Source of the DNA: Minisyncoccota bacterium
Lineage (GTDB): Bacteria > Patescibacteriota > Minisyncoccia > Phycocordibacterales > JABMNX01
Length of the DNA stretch: 64,000 nt
Assembly: GCA_965222715.1 (NCBI GenBank)
Contig: OZ244961.1
Span: 204,609 to 268,608, forward strand
Direction of reading: 5' to 3'
The position numbers and the translations under genes were made by a program. Under the pieces are notes generated by a model. It did not search any database. It saw nothing but the letters and a program-made list of their open reading frames with translations, and had not been told where the DNA came from. Of the stretch, positions 3,607 through 59,004 are shown piece after piece (the stretch's first letter is position 1; every line of letters begins with the position of its first letter).

Positions 3607-4464
3607 TTAATCAGCACAACGAAATTCTCCCATTCGCTCAATAATAATACCCTTTAACTCCATTGCTGAAAGTAGTACGTGCGCTTCTGTCACTGGTAGC
3701 TCAAGTGCATCAATGAGTGTATCTCTATGCATGGGGTGACTAAGTAGCTCTACTACTTTTTTCTCAGCATCGCTTAATGTTTCCAAATGCTGCATGTGGG
3801 GAGTGACGTGTATGCCGAGTGCTTCAAGAATATCATCACTTGAAGTAATAGGTGTTGCACCATTCTTTATTAACATGTGTGGCCCGTATGAAAGTCGTGA
3901 AAACACTGTGTTTGGCACGGTGAGTACATCCCGATTGTATTCCATTGCGAGTCGAGCGGTTATGAGTGTTCCTGATTTTTCCCCTGCTTCAATAACAAGT
4001 GTTGCGTGTGAGAGCCCCGCCATAATTCTATTTCGCTGCGGGAAACTATATGGTGTTGCGCGGAATGTTGGTTCAAATTCTGAAAGTAACCCACCGCCAG
4101 AGGAGAGTATGTCACGCGCAAGTGATTGATTGGTGCGTGGGTAGAGTACCGAGTCATGTAATCCTGATCCAGGGACGGCTACCGTATGAAGCCCTGCAGC
4201 AAGGGCCGCTCTGTGTGCGAGTGCGTCCATGCCAAGAGCAAGTCCTGAGACAATAGCAATGGGGTAACCGCGAAGGCCGTGAATAAACGTCTCACACACA
4301 TCTTTCCCGTACGGTGAGTGACGTCGTGAACCAACCACACACAATAGTATTGTATTTTCCTGTGGAAGAGATCCTCGTAGGTAAAGTGTTTTAGGCGGGT
4401 CAGGTATTTCGTTAAGAAGTTGCGGGAACTCATCTGGAGTAAGTTGTCTCACTGTGTGCTCCAT
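3607..4464 (-). CDS. dprA: DNA processing protein DprA (Smf)
   Basis: 285 aa; Rossmann-like DprA core (GxAxGxDxxAH), conserved dprA-topA gene order. Confidence 0.85.
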   Translation of the reverse strand: MEHTVRQLTPDEFPQLLNEIPDPPKTLYLRGSLPQENTILLCVVGSRRHSPYGKDVCETFIHGLRGYPIAIVSGLALGMDALAHRAALAAGLHTVAVPGSGLHDSVLYPRTNQSLARDILSSGGGLLSEFEPTFRATPYSFPQRNRIMAGLSHATLVIEAGEKSGTLITARLAMEYNRDVLTVPNTVFSRLSYGPHMLIKNGATPITSSDDILEALGIHVTPHMQHLETLSDAEKKVVELLSHPMHRDTLIDALELPVTEAHVLLSAMELKGIIIERMGEFRCAD

Positions 4465-12302: not shown

Positions 12303-12323
12303 GAGGCTCAGAATATACAAAAT

Positions 12324-12349
12324 AAACGCCAAAGGTACCTTTGGCGTTT
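12324..12349. terminator. terminator hairpin, member of repeated family AAACGCCAA-(palindromic loop)-TTGGCGTTT
   Basis: perfect palindrome AAACGCCAAAGGTACCTTTGGCGTTT flanked by A and T tracts. Confidence 0.6.
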
Positions 12350-12511
12350 ATTTATACACAGGTAGAGTTATAGCATTGCTTGTATGTAGTAAATAGGTGG
12401 TATACTTTTCTCGAACGTGATGAGCGTTTCGGTGGAGATAGGTAAGAATCCGCCGGGGAATTAATGAGTTTTCTAGAAGTGTCGCTCGACACCCTAGAAG
12501 GCAAGCTCACA

Positions 12512-13487: not shown

Positions 13488-13991
13488 TTGATGGAAACCT
13501 CTAGGGAAACAGAGTATCTTGTAATAGTACCCATTGAGAGTATGCATGTTGGTGATGTGTATCCCAAAGGGGAATTATTACCACTACACTGCACCATCAT
13601 GCCCTGGTTTACTTTAGGTACACATTTAGACTATAACAAGCTTGATGGTATACTCACCAAACTTTCTCAAGAGGTAAAAGGTGGAGTCATTGAACTTGTT
13701 TCCAAGTACAAAGATTTTTTTGGACCAGAAAATGATGTTGAGGTACATGTGTTAGAAAAAAATGATACAGTCACACACCTCCACAACCAACTACTTACAC
13801 TACTACATGAGGCACACGTTACACCTATTTCACCACAGTGGTTAGGCAAGGGTTATCGTCCTCATATTACTGATGTGTCTTCGCAAATGCAGACAGGGGA
13901 TTCAGTGAAAGTTCATAGTCTTTGCATATTAGAACATGCAGGAGATAGGGTGAAACGAGTCCTAAAAGAGTATACATTTGGGTCTAACTAA
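13488..13991 (+). CDS. 2H phosphoesterase superfamily protein (LigT-like 2'-5' RNA ligase/cyclic phosphodiesterase)
   Basis: two H-x-T/S-x motifs (LHCTIMPW and PHITDV) at the characteristic spacing. Confidence 0.55.
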   Translation: MMETSRETEYLVIVPIESMHVGDVYPKGELLPLHCTIMPWFTLGTHLDYNKLDGILTKLSQEVKGGVIELVSKYKDFFGPENDVEVHVLEKNDTVTHLHNQLLTLLHEAHVTPISPQWLGKGYRPHITDVSSQMQTGDSVKVHSLCILEHAGDRVKRVLKEYTFGSN

Positions 13992-14033
13992 GTTACATAT
14001 AACTATTCATTTATACATTTATACCCATTCTAT

Positions 14034-14206
14034 CCACAGGTTTTTGCACATTTTGATTTGCAGGACTTTTTACTAGTGTATAAAATTAAAGGACTGAAGC
14101 GTTGACGGTTTTCCTCTCCGGAGAAAAACCTCGCAGTATGCAAGACGACTGCTTGAACGCTTCGGGCAAGCAAACGCACCGCTCACGCGGTGCGTTTGCG
14201 TTTTTA
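14034..14206 (+). promoter_or_regulatory. structured 5' leader copy A: conserved box CCACAGGTTTTTGCACATTT + P1/P2/P3 multi-stem + GGGCAAGC + terminator hairpin (14171-14198) + T5
   Basis: paralogous copy at 15474-15640 with compensatory changes in every stem. Confidence 0.5.
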
Positions 14207-14228
14207 GTTTTGATACAATAGTTAAAAA

Positions 14229-14534
14229 ATGAAAACGTATACTATTTCTTCTGAGCTATGGGTATATCCAACTGAAAAAGCCGCGTGGCACTTTGTTACT
14301 GTTGGCAAAAGAGAATCTGCCCACATTAAAAAAGATCAGCAGAAAAATCAAAAAGGAGTGCGTCGTGGTTTTGGGTCAATTCCAGTAAAAGTAACTATTG
14401 GCAAAACCACATGGACAACATCTATATTTCCTAACGCAAAAGATGGTACATATCTTCTGCCAGTAAAAAGCTCGGTGAGAAAAGCAGAGGGACTTTTTGA
14501 AGGAGATATGGTACAAGCATCTCTATTAATTTAG
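14229..14534 (+). CDS. DUF1905 domain protein
   Basis: 101 aa; DUF1905 (YdeI-like) pattern. Confidence 0.55.
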   Translation: MKTYTISSELWVYPTEKAAWHFVTVGKRESAHIKKDQQKNQKGVRRGFGSIPVKVTIGKTTWTTSIFPNAKDGTYLLPVKSSVRKAEGLFEGDMVQASLLI

Positions 14535-14594
14535 AAATTTATAATCTAGAGTTTGGTATACTGAAACGGTTGTAATAACTTTATATCTCATTAT

Positions 14595-15359
14595 ATGAAA
14601 CACATTCTTACAGTAGTAATCTTACTCATTATTCTTGTTGGTGGATACTATCTCCTCATGCATGATGCTGAGAAAATAAGTAGAAGCACAAACCCCGTTA
14701 CTGTGACTCCAGTATCACACGCAACCTTCGCACTTTCGTGGGCAGGTGAAACACTGTACGCAGATCCTATTGGTGGGAAAGAGGTATTCAGTGATCTTGC
14801 TGCACCATCTCTTATATTTGTGACTGATGTTCATGGAGACCACTTAAATGTTGAAACACTCGAAGCGGTGGTCACCGAGGATACCACTATCCTTGCGCCG
14901 CAAGCGGTTGTTGATATGTTCACTGAAGGACTGCTTGGAAAGACAGTAGTACTTGCAAACGGAGAGACAACAGAGCAAAAAGGGTTCTCAATTGAAGCTA
15001 TCCCAATGTATAACTTACCAGATCAGGGGGTTGAAATTCGTCATGAAAAAGGGCGAGGAAATGGATACCTTATTGAGCGTGATGGCACTCGTGTCTACAT
15101 TGCTGGGGACACTGCTGATATTCCCGAAATGCGCATGCTTACTGACATTGATATTGCATTTATTCCAATGAATATGCCATACACCATGGATATTGAACGA
15201 GCAGCGAGCGGTGTTCTTGCTTTTAAACCCGCACAAGTCTACCCATATCACTACCGTGGGCCCGACGGACTTGCTGATGTTGATCGATTCAAAGAATTGG
15301 TAGAAGAGGGGGATGAAAACATTGAAGTTATATTAGGAAACTGGTATCCAGCTGAGTAA
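14595..15359 (+). CDS. MBL-fold metallo-hydrolase, membrane-anchored
   Basis: HxHxDH-type motif (VHGDHLN), N-terminal TM. Confidence 0.7.
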   Translation: MKHILTVVILLIILVGGYYLLMHDAEKISRSTNPVTVTPVSHATFALSWAGETLYADPIGGKEVFSDLAAPSLIFVTDVHGDHLNVETLEAVVTEDTTILAPQAVVDMFTEGLLGKTVVLANGETTEQKGFSIEAIPMYNLPDQGVEIRHEKGRGNGYLIERDGTRVYIAGDTADIPEMRMLTDIDIAFIPMNMPYTMDIERAASGVLAFKPAQVYPYHYRGPDGLADVDRFKELVEEGDENIEVILGNWYPAE

Positions 15360-15397
15360 GCATAGGTACTATAACTAAAGCTGCAGAAGCTTGAAAT

Positions 15398-15423
15398 AAA
15401 CGCCAAGAGTACTCTTGGCGTTT
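15398..15423. terminator. terminator hairpin AAACGCCAAGAGTACTCTTGGCGTTT (family copy 2)
   Basis: perfect palindrome with A/T flanks. Confidence 0.6.
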
Positions 15424-15473
15424 ATTTTTGCTTTTTAAAGCCACAATGCGGCTTTTGTTTATACACAAGGTGT

Positions 15474-15640
15474 CCACAGGTTTTTGCACATTTCGAGTTT
15501 GGTAAAAGTAAAACACTTATATATACTTTTATGTACTAAGGCGTTGAGATTGATTTCTTCGGAAACCAATTGACGTAGTGAAAACTACACACATCGCCTT
15601 GGGCAAACCACACGCACCGCTCACGCGGTGCGTGTGTGCG
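15474..15640 (+). promoter_or_regulatory. structured 5' leader copy B (same architecture as 14034-14206; terminal hairpin 15609-15636)
   Basis: shares conserved box CCACAGGTTTTTGCACATTT, P1 AAGGCG/CGCCTT, P2 UUCG-loop hairpin, P3 GTAGT-GAAA-ACTAC, GGGCAAAC, hairpin CACACGCACCGC-TCAC-GCGGTGCGTGTG. Confidence 0.5.
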
Positions 15641-15718
15641 TCTACGCTACTTTAAAAATATACTGTTTATTACTTACTAGTAGTTTTATACTCTTGTGTG
15701 GCATACTTATACATAACT

Positions 15719-16132
15719 ATGCATCATAAAATTGTAGTCGGTATTGTTATTGTAGGAGCAGTTATTGCTATTGACGCATTCTTCTGGGGAGGCATTCCAT
15801 CGGTCTTTGAAAGTGGTAATCGTGCCTCTGCACCATTACCAACAACACCCACAGAAACTGGGGAAGACAATGCTAACCCACGAAATGCAGCACAAACACT
15901 TACAGCGGTGCGCGACTATGTTTCTACACATACTGGAGTAGATGAAAATGAAGTTATTGTACCAAGTCTTTTTGAGAAAGAATGGCCAAATGGTTGTCTT
16001 GGTCTTGAGCAAACTGGAGAGTTTTGTACTCAAGTGATTACACCAGGTTTTGAAGTTACTGCAGAAGTTGGGGGAGAGACTATTGTATATCGCACGAATG
16101 CGGACGGCTCAGTCATTCGAGAAGCGCAATAA
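15719..16132 (+). CDS. membrane-anchored hypothetical protein
   Basis: N-terminal TM, Cys-containing soluble domain; ATG 15719 preferred over GTG 15698. Confidence 0.45.
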   Translation: MHHKIVVGIVIVGAVIAIDAFFWGGIPSVFESGNRASAPLPTTPTETGEDNANPRNAAQTLTAVRDYVSTHTGVDENEVIVPSLFEKEWPNGCLGLEQTGEFCTQVITPGFEVTAEVGGETIVYRTNADGSVIREAQ

Positions 16133-16155
16133 TATAACGTCGCTATATATACTAC

Positions 16156-16545
16156 ATGAAAGGATACATTGTTAATATTGAACAAGATACATTACAAAAC
16201 ACTGACTATCGTCGGGTACTCTACACCGCAAAAAATAGTCAACTTGTGGTTATGTCTATAGAGCCAGGAGACGAGATTGGTGAGGAGGTGCATGAACTTG
16301 ATCAGTTTATTCGTTTGGAGAAGGGGAGTGCAAAGGTCGTCCTTAATAAAGAAAATGAACACACACTCAATGCTGATGAGGCGGTAGTCATACCAGCTGG
16401 TATGTGGCATAACGTTATAAATATAGGGACCGAGCCGCTTAAACTATACTCAATTTACTCACCACCCGAACATAAAGATGGTACAGTACATGCAACTAAG
16501 GCGGATGAGCAAGAAGAACATTTTGATGGAGTAACAACAGAATAG
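16156..16545 (+). CDS. cupin-domain protein
   Basis: cupin-2 motifs G(X)5HxH...GxxxH-like (EEVHELDQ... PAGMWHNVIN). Confidence 0.7.
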   Translation: MKGYIVNIEQDTLQNTDYRRVLYTAKNSQLVVMSIEPGDEIGEEVHELDQFIRLEKGSAKVVLNKENEHTLNADEAVVIPAGMWHNVINIGTEPLKLYSIYSPPEHKDGTVHATKADEQEEHFDGVTTE

Positions 16546-16547
16546 TT

Positions 16548-16940
16548 ATGGATTATTCAACATACTATACAAGTATTGCGAAGCCATTTTTTGCGCCACC
16601 AGAATGGGTGTTTGGTCTTGCGTGGGGAATTATTTACCCACTTATTGTTATTGCTGGGGTGTATCTACTCTATCTAGTTTTTAAACGTATAGTCCCAACA
16701 TCACTTCTCTTGGTCTTTGGAGTAAATATAGTAGCAAACCTTTTATTCACCCCTATTCAACTTACTCTTCAGAACAACCTCCTTGCGACCATTGATATAT
16801 TGGTAGTTCTTGGAACTCTGGCATATCTTCAGTATAAAATTTTCTCATTATCTAAAGTCATTTTTATACTCTTTCTTCCGTACTTACTTTGGGGATCTTT
16901 TGCAACCATACTTCAAGTGACTATTTTTTTCATGAATTAA
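16548..16940 (+). CDS. tspO: TspO/MBR family protein (short)
   Basis: KPFFAPPEWVFGLAWGIIYPL N-terminal signature, 4-5 TM. Confidence 0.55.
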   Translation: MDYSTYYTSIAKPFFAPPEWVFGLAWGIIYPLIVIAGVYLLYLVFKRIVPTSLLLVFGVNIVANLLFTPIQLTLQNNLLATIDILVVLGTLAYLQYKIFSLSKVIFILFLPYLLWGSFATILQVTIFFMN

Positions 16941-16982
16941 ATACACTTTACACTGGTAAGTGACCATGTACACTAGTGAGTA

Positions 16983-17342
16983 ATGTTTGGAAGTACTACA
17001 CAAGCCCGAGCACAGAATCACTCCATGTTACGTATGGTATGTTTTGTGATTGCGCTTTTCCTTGTTTTTTCTTTTGTTATTCACGCAATTGACATTGATC
17101 ACTACCACCCTGAAGCTATTTTTGGCGTTGGTCTTGAATCGTTTTTTCATGCTGACAATCGTAAGTGGGTATTTATACTCCTTATGCTGTGCGTCACGTT
17201 GTCCTTGTGGTGTATTAAAAAATACATACACACCCACGTGTTGGAAGAAACAACACAAGAAGATATCGTCCCTACGTCTGTATTTTTCTATTTTGATATT
17301 TCTACCGAGAAAGGAATTATTCAAAATATACTATATGGCTAA
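16983..17342 (+). CDS. hypothetical membrane protein
   Basis: ORF with 2-3 TM; no homology recognised. Confidence 0.35.
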   Translation: MFGSTTQARAQNHSMLRMVCFVIALFLVFSFVIHAIDIDHYHPEAIFGVGLESFFHADNRKWVFILLMLCVTLSLWCIKKYIHTHVLEETTQEDIVPTSVFFYFDISTEKGIIQNILYG

Positions 17343-17381
17343 CAGTTAGTTTTTGTATTAGTTACTAACTTAGAAAAATAT

Positions 17382-17960
17382 ATGAAAGAATATGGTTTAG
17401 CAGCAGGTATGCTGGTTATCGGACTTATTGGCGGATATTTCTTTGGTATGAATAATACCCAATTAAAGATGCCGCATATAGAGACCGAAGAACACATGGA
17501 TGATGGACATATGCACATGGCAGATGTCTCCAGTGACCGAGAATTTATTGAGCATATGATTCCACATCATCAAGAAGCAGTTGATACTGCGCGTGAAGTA
17601 CTTGAGAGAGGTGGAGAGATTTCTGAGGTGAAAACACTTGCTGAAAACATCATCACCGCTCAAGAAAAAGAGATTGTAGATATGAAATCATGGTACAAAG
17701 AGTGGTATGGTACTGATTTCAAAGATGTAGGTGTGTACGAACCAATGATGCGAGAACTCGAGACCTTCTCTGGAAAAGAATTAGATATTATCTTTACAAA
17801 AGATATGATAATTCATCACATGGGAGCGTTAATGATGGCAAACAGCGCCCTTAGTTTTGCAGAGCATAAAGAACTCCAAATGCTTTCTCAAAACATTCTT
17901 ACAACACAACAGGAAGAAATTGAACTTATGAAACATATCCTTCAAAGATACGAGGAGTAG
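17382..17960 (+). CDS. DUF305 domain protein (two HH-x-GA repeats), membrane-anchored
   Basis: MIPHHQEAV and MIIHHMGALMMA motifs typical of DUF305. Confidence 0.7.
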   Translation: MKEYGLAAGMLVIGLIGGYFFGMNNTQLKMPHIETEEHMDDGHMHMADVSSDREFIEHMIPHHQEAVDTAREVLERGGEISEVKTLAENIITAQEKEIVDMKSWYKEWYGTDFKDVGVYEPMMRELETFSGKELDIIFTKDMIIHHMGALMMANSALSFAEHKELQMLSQNILTTQQEEIELMKHILQRYEE

Positions 17961-17981: not shown

Positions 17982-18006
17982 ACACAGTGTGCACACTGTG
18001 TTTTTT
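17982..18006 (+). terminator. intrinsic terminator ACACAGTGTGCACACTGTGT + T6
   Basis: perfect palindrome flanked by A8 and T6. Confidence 0.6.
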
Positions 18007-18039
18007 GTTTTATTGTGTAAAATATACTACTATTTTTGT

Positions 18040-29188: not shown

Positions 29189-29205
29189 AGCGAAGTAGAA
29201 CATAG

Positions 29206-29233
29206 AAAACGCCAAGAGTATTCTTGGCGTTTT
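29206..29233. terminator. terminator hairpin AAAACGCCAAGAGTATTCTTGGCGTTTT (family copy 3)
   Basis: perfect palindrome. Confidence 0.6.
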
Positions 29234-29305
29234 CTATAGGATGGCTTAGCTAAGCCATGTAAACACCTTAAGTGCTCAAGGTGTTTCCAAAGGTGTTTCT
29301 AAGAA

Positions 29306-58948: not shown

Positions 58949-58953
58949 AAAAT

Positions 58954-58979
58954 AAACGCCAAGAGTACTCTTGGCGTTT
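58954..58979. terminator. terminator hairpin AAACGCCAAGAGTACTCTTGGCGTTT (family copy 4)
   Basis: identical to 15398-15423. Confidence 0.6.
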
Positions 58980-59004
58980 ATTGTGGCTCTAAACAGCCAC
59001 AGTT

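Follow-up and report, generated by a model that had tools for sequence, protein, structure and literature searches.

Copy B of the element described here is encoded on the + strand of the window (the whole 64,000-nt stretch of DNA analyzed, from a 617-kb contig of a member of the Patescibacteria) at 15536-15636, ahead of a co-oriented operon at 15719-17960. Judged by open reading frames and Pfam matches, this operon encodes, all on the + strand, a 137-aa membrane protein without a Pfam match (15719-16132), a cupin (Cupin_2, 16156-16545), a TspO homolog (TspO_MBR, 16548-16940), a 119-aa membrane protein that likewise has no Pfam match (16983-17342), and a DUF305 protein (17382-17960), and it is closed by a terminator hairpin read from the sequence at about 17982-18007. 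This gene content agrees with the initial annotation of the locus. The stop region of the cupin gene and the start of the TspO gene overlap (16545/16548), and the TspO homolog is short (130 aa), with the Pfam profile matched only from position 20.

Another copy of the element, copy A, occupies 14094-14209 (+) including a U tract (14094-14199 to the end of its terminal hairpin) and precedes a DUF1905 gene (ATG 14229), which is followed by a gene for a membrane-anchored MBL-fold protein. Copies A and B are direct repeats 1440 nt apart, with this two-gene module between them. Directly upstream of copy A lies a 167-aa ORF (13488-13991, +) without a terminator of its own, which shows only a weak match, to the 2'-5' RNA ligase/2H phosphoesterase superfamily, and whose sole homolog among 5.8 billion proteins is itself. 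The closest relatives of the proteins encoded next to the element share only 45-64% identity with them. Elsewhere in the window, a 34-nt palindromic terminator-like hairpin (AAATAAACGCCAAGAGTACTCTTGGCGTTTATTT and variants) occurs four times after unrelated genes (12320-12353, 15394-15427, 29203-29236, and 58950-58983), with the repeats at 15394-15445 and 58950-59001 being 88% identical over 52 nt, including a second small hairpin.

Copies A and B share a predicted fold

Copy B is predicted to form a three-way junction of helices P1, P2, and P3, followed by a GGGCAA linker and a GC-rich hairpin of 12 bp. P1 pairs 15536-15545 with 15593-15602. P2 pairs 15548-15557 with 15562-15571 around a UUCG loop (15558-15561) and contains an A.C mismatch in mid-helix, and P3 pairs 15575-15579 with 15584-15588 around a GAAA loop (15580-15583); both tetraloops had been recognized in the initial annotation and lie where it placed them. 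The strands connecting the helices read GA (J1/2), GAC (J2/3), and ACAC (J3/1). The linker, GGGCAA(A) at 15601-15607 (GGGCAA at 15601-15606), closes P1 with its first two G, and the terminal hairpin P4 (15609-15620 with 15625-15636) has 12 perfect pairs and a UCAC loop. For the junction of copy B (15536-15602), the minimum free energy fold equals the centroid, with a z-score of -4.30. Relative to shuffled sequences, the three-way junction alone reaches a z-score of -4.3 in copy A and copy B alike, while the folding energy of the full element corresponds to z-scores of -6.85 (B) and -5.98 (A).

Copy A has the same architecture on the + strand, with a junction at 14094-14165, GGGCAA at 14164-69, a 13-bp hairpin at 14170-14199, and then the U tract GTTTTTAGTTTT, and its hairpin and U tract were rated terminator-like in a terminator scan. 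In contrast, the terminal hairpin of copy B (15609-15636) is directly followed by TGCGTCTACGCTAC (also read as TGCGTCTACGC), which is not a T tract. This difference between the copies had been pointed out before, and we could confirm it; by its sequence, the hairpin of copy B is not a canonical intrinsic terminator.

The earlier proposal that copy B is the second member of an element first seen at 14034 is borne out by the shared architecture and by two shared words. The 21-mer TCCACAGGTTTTTGCACATTT is identical at 15473-15493 (B) and 14033-14053 (A), and these are its only two matches in the window with up to 3 mismatches (0 expected, 100 shuffles). Likewise, the 22-nt hairpin core ACGCACCGCTCACGCGGTGCGT is found twice, at 15612-15633 (B) and 14174-14195 (A), with 0 expected. 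While identity between A and B is complete for the 21-mer (21/21) and the hairpin palindrome (22/22), it is only 50-60% for the strands of P2. The apical 9 bp and loop of the hairpin are identical at 22/22 positions, whereas the other helices have drifted.

A third copy in a metagenome scaffold

A covariance model built from the two window copies alone (R2) detected a third full-length copy (48.5 bits, E 7e-11) at 821-935 of L210, a 3958-nt metagenome scaffold that was included solely because it carries a DUF1905 homolog (62% identity). Over the other loci, about 1.5 Mb in total, no score of this model exceeded noise. In the L210 copy, P1 and J1/2 (GAC) are as in the window copies, P2 contains a 2x2 internal loop, and a near-identical P3 is followed by GGGCAA, a 14-bp hairpin with a GUAA loop, and then UUUUUU. 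The apical stem CCGC/GCGG of the hairpin and its 3' strand GCGGTGC are retained. The P3 loop is the 10-nt AUGNAANANG in A and L210, with GAAA instead in B, a swap that would resemble those found where a loop docks on a neighboring helix. On this scaffold, a gene for a CRP-family regulator (cNMP_binding and HTH_Crp_2; 1955-2617, -) lies between the RNA-MscS-DUF4389 unit, which is described below, and the DUF1905 gene; there is no equivalent of it near the window copies.

Several other searches returned no further copy. The exact pattern of GGGCAA plus hairpin core had no match in genome or metagenome contig collections, and neither did a hairpin 20-mer in viral contigs. A looser pattern, GCGTTGA..GGGCAA..CCGC-N4-GCGG, hit at least 120 metagenome stretches: 80 listed loci (L090-L169) gave no match to R2, the sequences and folds of the other 40 listed stretches were inspected by eye, and all those listed proved to be chance matches or an unrelated recurring element. 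The three-copy consensus pattern gave one chance match in viral contigs, in a GC-rich coding region, and blastn against plasmids and phages gave none. As for synteny, there was no copy in 80 loci around MBL homologs, in the contexts of homologs of the 137-aa protein, or in the DUF1905 contexts L001-L005 and L211-L214; L210 was the only one among these routes to have a copy. A literature search returned nothing relevant to the element.

The unrelated element just mentioned is a highly conserved metagenome element of ~100 nt (…GAGCCTGAAAGGCTC…CAGCCTGGGGCAAGAGAATCCGCGAATGCGGATGAACGCCGCCCCAGG…) with nested hairpins, on contigs with a GC content of 0.50-0.57. Among the matches listed, it occurs in L090 (2751-2834), L098 (5299-5382), and L100 (2087-2170), as well as in L104, L111, L114, L116, L122, and about 15 others. 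It fits the scan pattern by chance and has no match to R2, nor any Rfam match in L098 or L104.

Direct repeats and a promoter-like sequence precede each copy

An alignment of the three upstream regions revealed conservation extending about 75 nt upstream. Every copy is preceded by three direct repeats of an 8-mer (TATNCACA-like; consensus of the array TATNCACA-N3-TATNCACA-N4-TNTNMACA) whose starts lie 11 and 12 nt apart, and then by -35/-10 hexamers, the -35 hexamer lying about 14-15 nt past the start of the third repeat. In copy B (+), the repeats are TATACACA (15460-15467), TGTCCACA (15471-15478), and TTTGCACA (15483-15490); in copy A (+), they are TATACCCA (14020-27), TATCCACA (14031-38), and again TTTGCACA (14043-50); and in L210 they are TATCCCCA, TATTCACA, and TATAAACA. 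The 21-mer of the initial annotation (15473-15493) corresponds to repeats 2 and 3. A regular expression for the repeat pair, run on 1.72 Mb, retrieved the three RNA promoters (window and L210) plus two unrelated loci, and the triple repeat has no further site in the window.

A consensus scan identified promoter-like hexamers in copy B (-35 TTGGTA at 15499-15504, a 17-nt spacer, and -10 TATACT at 15522-15527, +) and copy A (-35 TTTGCA at 14057-62, an 18-nt spacer, and -10 TAAAAT at 14081-86, +). In L210, -35 TTTGCA (784-789) and -10 TATCAT (807-812) are 17 nt apart, with P1 from 821. In all three copies, these consensus matches end 7-9 nt ahead of P1. Transcription is therefore expected to start one to three bases before P1, which in copy B would be near A15535. 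Hence, 15474-15535, previously taken as part of the structured RNA, is better read as promoter and protein-binding DNA, with these first 62 bases lying upstream of the RNA. Two other promoter types were considered and rejected: for a sigma-54 promoter, the critical GG is CC, and for an ECF promoter, the would-be -10 is not conserved.

We presume that the triple repeat is a transcription factor binding site, i.e., an operator. The genes annotated on either side of the element (1306-29188) include no candidate for this factor or for an RNA-binding protein. Since the copies have this promoter architecture in common, with the same repeats and -35/-10 in A, B, and L210, the earlier suggestion that one signal governs both window copies is well supported.

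Genes downstream of the element have -10-like boxes of their own

In all three cases the element is followed by a co-oriented gene, at a distance from hairpin to ATG of 29 (A), 82 (B), and 48 nt (L210). On L210 this gene encodes an MscS-type channel (ATG 984) and is accompanied by DUF4389. The first downstream genes therefore belong to three unrelated families (n = 3): DUF1905, an uncharacterized membrane protein, and MscS. Among the products encoded downstream of the three copies no family is shared, and membrane or secreted proteins prevail. In L086 (10001-20396), a homolog of the 137-aa protein of operon B (42% identity) is found within a metal/redox gene cluster that comprises MerC-like, MsrA/B, DUF302, a CsoR-type repressor, a P-type ATPase, rhodanese, DsbD, thioredoxins, DsbA, and cupredoxin; this cluster points to a metal/redox role for the 137-aa protein family. 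The metal, oxidative, or envelope stress signal suggested in the initial annotation is therefore plausible, given the mostly membrane or secreted products and the context of the L086 homolog.

By regular expression, an extended -10-like box was identified just upstream of the start codon of operon B (TGGCATACT at 15699-15707, 11 nt before ATG 15719, +) and of the gene after copy A (TGATACAAT at 14211-19, 9 nt before ATG 14229, +), and L210 has one as well (TGATACATT, 7 nt before ATG 984). A -10 box this near a start codon is a known signature of leaderless mRNAs. Of 60 genes in the window, 10 have the box TGN[TC]ANNNT ending 6-15 nt ahead of their start codon, compared to about 2 expected from its overall frequency, which is an about fivefold excess (example genes begin at 3607, 14229, 15719, 19209, 33910, 40065, and 41483). 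Many starts in the window have no Shine-Dalgarno sequence, and leaderless mRNAs seem to be common in this genome. We presume that 15699-15707 is part of operon B's own promoter and would yield a leaderless or near-leaderless mRNA. With a -10 box of their own, the downstream genes would not need the upstream promoter.

Pairing is conserved on the + strand

Conservation of the fold was assessed on two hand alignments. In that of the two window copies (A4), which was N-padded so that MAFFT leaves it ungapped, standard pairs fill 94.7% of pair cells and 7 pairs differ on both sides, while sliding the 3' partner lowers pairing to 34-46%. In that of all three copies (A5), 91.2% of cells are paired and both-side changes are seen in 13 of 38 pairs, spread over all four helices; A5 holds three sequences from two organisms and was hand-fitted with N padding, so that its pair counts lean towards structure. 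As controls, none of 500 shuffles reached the observed pairing, and slid alignments were 36-45% paired. RNAalifold recovered the same four helices from A5, and from a plain MAFFT alignment it again returned the four-helix layout, with P1 and P2 partial (27 pairs, 8 compensatory).

The G.GUUGA junction bases, the P3 stem C-G.AGU, and the GGGCAA linker are invariant in the three copies, and an internal mismatch in the middle of P2 is present in each of them, while J2/3 and J3/1 vary. The junctions read UUGAC/UUGAG, UC/GAC/GC, and UUG/ACAC/GUA. The CAA of the linker could form a pseudoknot with the invariant UUG of J1/2, a pairing that has no covariation backing. Pairing of the UCAC loop with the junction in a second pseudoknot was discarded, there being no conserved GUGA.

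These pairs bear on whether the element could function solely as DNA, with the direct repeats and a 9-4-9 palindromic operator (ACGCACCGC-TCAC-GCGGTGCGT) controlling the ATG-proximal promoters and the RNA fold being incidental. The best-conserved blocks between A and B are indeed the repeats and the palindrome, far ahead of the P2 strands, and in copy A the palindrome is centered about 41 nt ahead of the start that the -10 box at 14214-19 would give. However, 13 pairs over four helices that changed on both sides and are still complementary are not predicted by DNA-binding sites. Furthermore, the L210 hairpin pairs through G.U and is no palindrome in DNA, and the palindrome lies at varying distances from the downstream -10, about 20 nt (A), 70 (B), and 45 (L210). 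We hence consider a function in DNA only quite unlikely.

On both strands, the window copies reach about the same fold stability. If the RNA were made from the minus strand, as an antisense or divergent small RNA, the A.C mismatches in P2 of A and B would become G.U, and the folds would be almost as stable as those of the + strand in these two copies. Against this, minus-strand folding of the L210 copy is much weaker (-30.4 vs. -42.7 kcal/mol on the + strand), and the + strand G.U pairs of P1 and P4, including two in the L210 hairpin, would be mismatches. In addition, the + strand is the reading direction of the tetraloops of the UNCG and GNRA types (cUNCGg in P2 of A and B, GAAA in P3 of B), of the U tracts found in A and L210, and of the conserved promoter. 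The G.U pairs and fold energy of the L210 copy therefore place the RNA on the + strand, and we regard transcription of a functional RNA from the other strand as extremely unlikely.

The same comparison speaks to the notion that the element is a functionless remnant of a repeated or mobile element, either REP/MITE-like or a cassette boundary. Its two copies are direct repeats 1440 nt apart around a two-gene module, and the genome has another family (D1) of repeated palindromic hairpins. However, there are only two copies in 64 kb, with no terminal inverted repeats or target duplications, and no recombinase or transposase is found among the annotated genes (1306-29188). Moreover, compensatory changes, together with a promoter and fold kept in a distant organism and another gene context, argue for selection, making a remnant very unlikely indeed. 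On these comparative grounds, we consider that the element is a real and conserved structured RNA that had not been catalogued before and that has a regulated promoter, itself conserved. In other words, it is very probably a selected + strand RNA.

The element matches no Rfam family

Using Rfam 15 (4227 models) at gathering thresholds, only two tRNAs were found in the window. At E up to 10, the 13950-15750 region gave only chance hairpin matches, the best being NrrF on the minus strand (23.9 bits vs. a threshold of 60), and the L210 element gave no match. Other candidates were rejected by inspection. A hammerhead or other junction-type ribozyme was dismissed since the core CUGANGA ... GAAA is absent and there is no Rfam ribozyme match, a T-box and an integron attC site since their core motifs are absent, and a small coding ORF within the element since its frame is not kept from copy to copy. 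The 21-mer was also examined for pairing with the RNA, and none was found.

Constrained folding, in which the RNA was taken up to the hairpin loop or the 3' strand of the hairpin or the 5' strand of P1 was blocked, left the junction or the hairpin intact. In truncated and constrained folds, the 5' strand of the blocked hairpin finds no replacement helix of >5 pairs, i.e., no antiterminator. As no fold competes with the junction and the hairpin, which form independently of each other, the RNA most likely acts through a protein or small ligand bound at the junction/linker core and not as a terminator/antiterminator switch.

Cis-acting leader or small RNA gene

We considered whether the element might be a cis-acting leader, either a riboswitch or a protein-dependent attenuator, in which the junction would respond to a ligand or protein connected with envelope, metal, or redox stress and set read-through past the hairpin, with copy B as a variant tuned for high read-through. 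This is possible but doubtful. Several features are what a leader would have: all copies lie immediately upstream of a co-oriented gene, the invariant junction and linker bases resemble an aptamer core, the hairpin of A and L210 has a U tract directly next to it as in transcriptional riboswitches, the downstream products are mostly membrane or secreted, and the first protein of operon B has its homolog in a metal/redox gene cluster. However, the junction and the hairpin are not coupled by mutually exclusive structures, each downstream gene has a -10-like box of its own 7-11 nt from its ATG, J2/3 and J3/1 are not the same between copies, and no Rfam riboswitch is matched even at E up to 10. Moreover, the recurrent association with the same gene families that is expected of a riboswitch is not seen in the three cases, the first genes being from unrelated families.

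The term leader, as used in the initial annotation, is thus partly apt. Copy B may be a literal leader, as it has no U tract and read-through into the operon is likely; its RNA would then form a long 5' extension on part of the operon's transcripts. For the element as a whole, the lack of an antiterminator, the strong terminators in two of the three copies, the -10 boxes of the downstream genes, and the unrelated first genes speak against the term, which may hold for B without describing the element's main function.

Our preferred reading over a cis-acting leader, held with roughly even confidence, is that the element represents a family of factor-controlled small RNA genes whose product acts as a free small RNA. 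At the consensus level, each of the three copies has its own promoter directly before the first helix, as expected of a small RNA gene, and the 3' end consists of a hairpin and U tract in A and L210 (UUUUUU), though not in B. Several points weigh against this reading. Promoters and terminators are consensus matches only, from three sequences in two organisms. Copy B, without a U tract and 82 nt from a co-oriented operon, looks like a leader, and the position of 3/3 copies directly upstream of co-oriented, mostly envelope-associated genes is that of a cis-regulator. Furthermore, domains that bind a ligand or protein are where a compact junction with invariant junction bases is more typically seen, rather than in a base-pairing small RNA, and the annotated genes (1306-29188) offer no candidate factor or RNA-binding protein.

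Discussion

In the preferred reading, the element would encode, on the + strand, a structured small RNA about 100-115 nt long, with two paralogs in this genome (within the 64-kb window) and at least one homolog in a related organism. A transcription factor would bind the three TATNCACA-like direct repeats just upstream of the -35/-10 promoter, and transcription would begin one to three bases ahead of P1. As covariation shows, the RNA folds into a compact three-way junction with invariant bases, followed by the GGGCAA linker and the GC-rich terminal hairpin. In copies A and L210, the hairpin and U tract should release a discrete RNA. In copy B, where the U tract is missing, polymerase would for that reason probably continue into the membrane-cupin-TspO-DUF305 operon, which has its own -10 box.

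A more far-reaching proposal, which we think rather improbable, is that the junction and GGGCAA form the sensor of a new riboswitch-like or protein-responsive class of RNA restricted to Patescibacteria, which would couple an envelope, metal, or redox stress signal to operons for small membrane proteins. If so, unequal read-through would result from terminators that are strong in A and L210 but missing from B, in hosts that otherwise have leaderless mRNAs and few known regulators.

To our knowledge, gene regulation in Patescibacteria (the candidate phyla radiation) is very poorly known, and hardly any regulatory RNAs have been reported from these bacteria. The element unites a conserved promoter, a direct-repeat operator, a compensatory fold, and U-tract variants ahead of envelope/stress-type genes. 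With three members, it is a candidate. Were more members found, they would offer a handle on a stress regulon in reduced genomes and would show how upstream regulation operates where many mRNAs appear to be leaderless.

Among known systems, the element resembles the purine riboswitch (RF00167) in having a junction of ~65-70 nt closed by P1, with P2 and P3 hairpins, a further hairpin within a few bases (followed in A and L210 by a U tract), and co-oriented genes downstream. It differs in that its loops are not conserved, which leaves no purine-type loop-loop contact, and in that it has no antiterminator and is followed by genes of different families with their own -10 boxes. As for the upstream region, winged-helix response regulators of the OmpR/PhoB type use operators of direct repeats, and the tandem ~8-nt repeats of the element are likewise spaced by roughly one helical turn (11-12 nt), with the series placed about 14 nt before the -35. 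However, the third repeat is 12 nt from the second, and not 10-11, and there is no response-regulator gene among the annotated genes (1306-29188).

For the preferred reading, the comparison is with factor-controlled small RNAs that exist as paralogs in bacteria, for example OmrA/OmrB (under OmpR), RsmY/RsmZ (under GacA), and the envelope-stress small RNAs of E. coli. Unlike RNAs of these types, the element has no single-stranded seed or repeated GGA-type motif, its body is a closed three-way junction with invariant junction bases and no known partner of the Hfq or CsrA type, and its copy B has no U tract. It nevertheless shares with them a promoter of its own preceded by conserved factor-binding repeats (here predicted), a strong 3' hairpin (here followed by a U tract in all but copy B), and the presence of more than one paralog per genome, in which the promoter and the 3' end are conserved while the middle has diverged.
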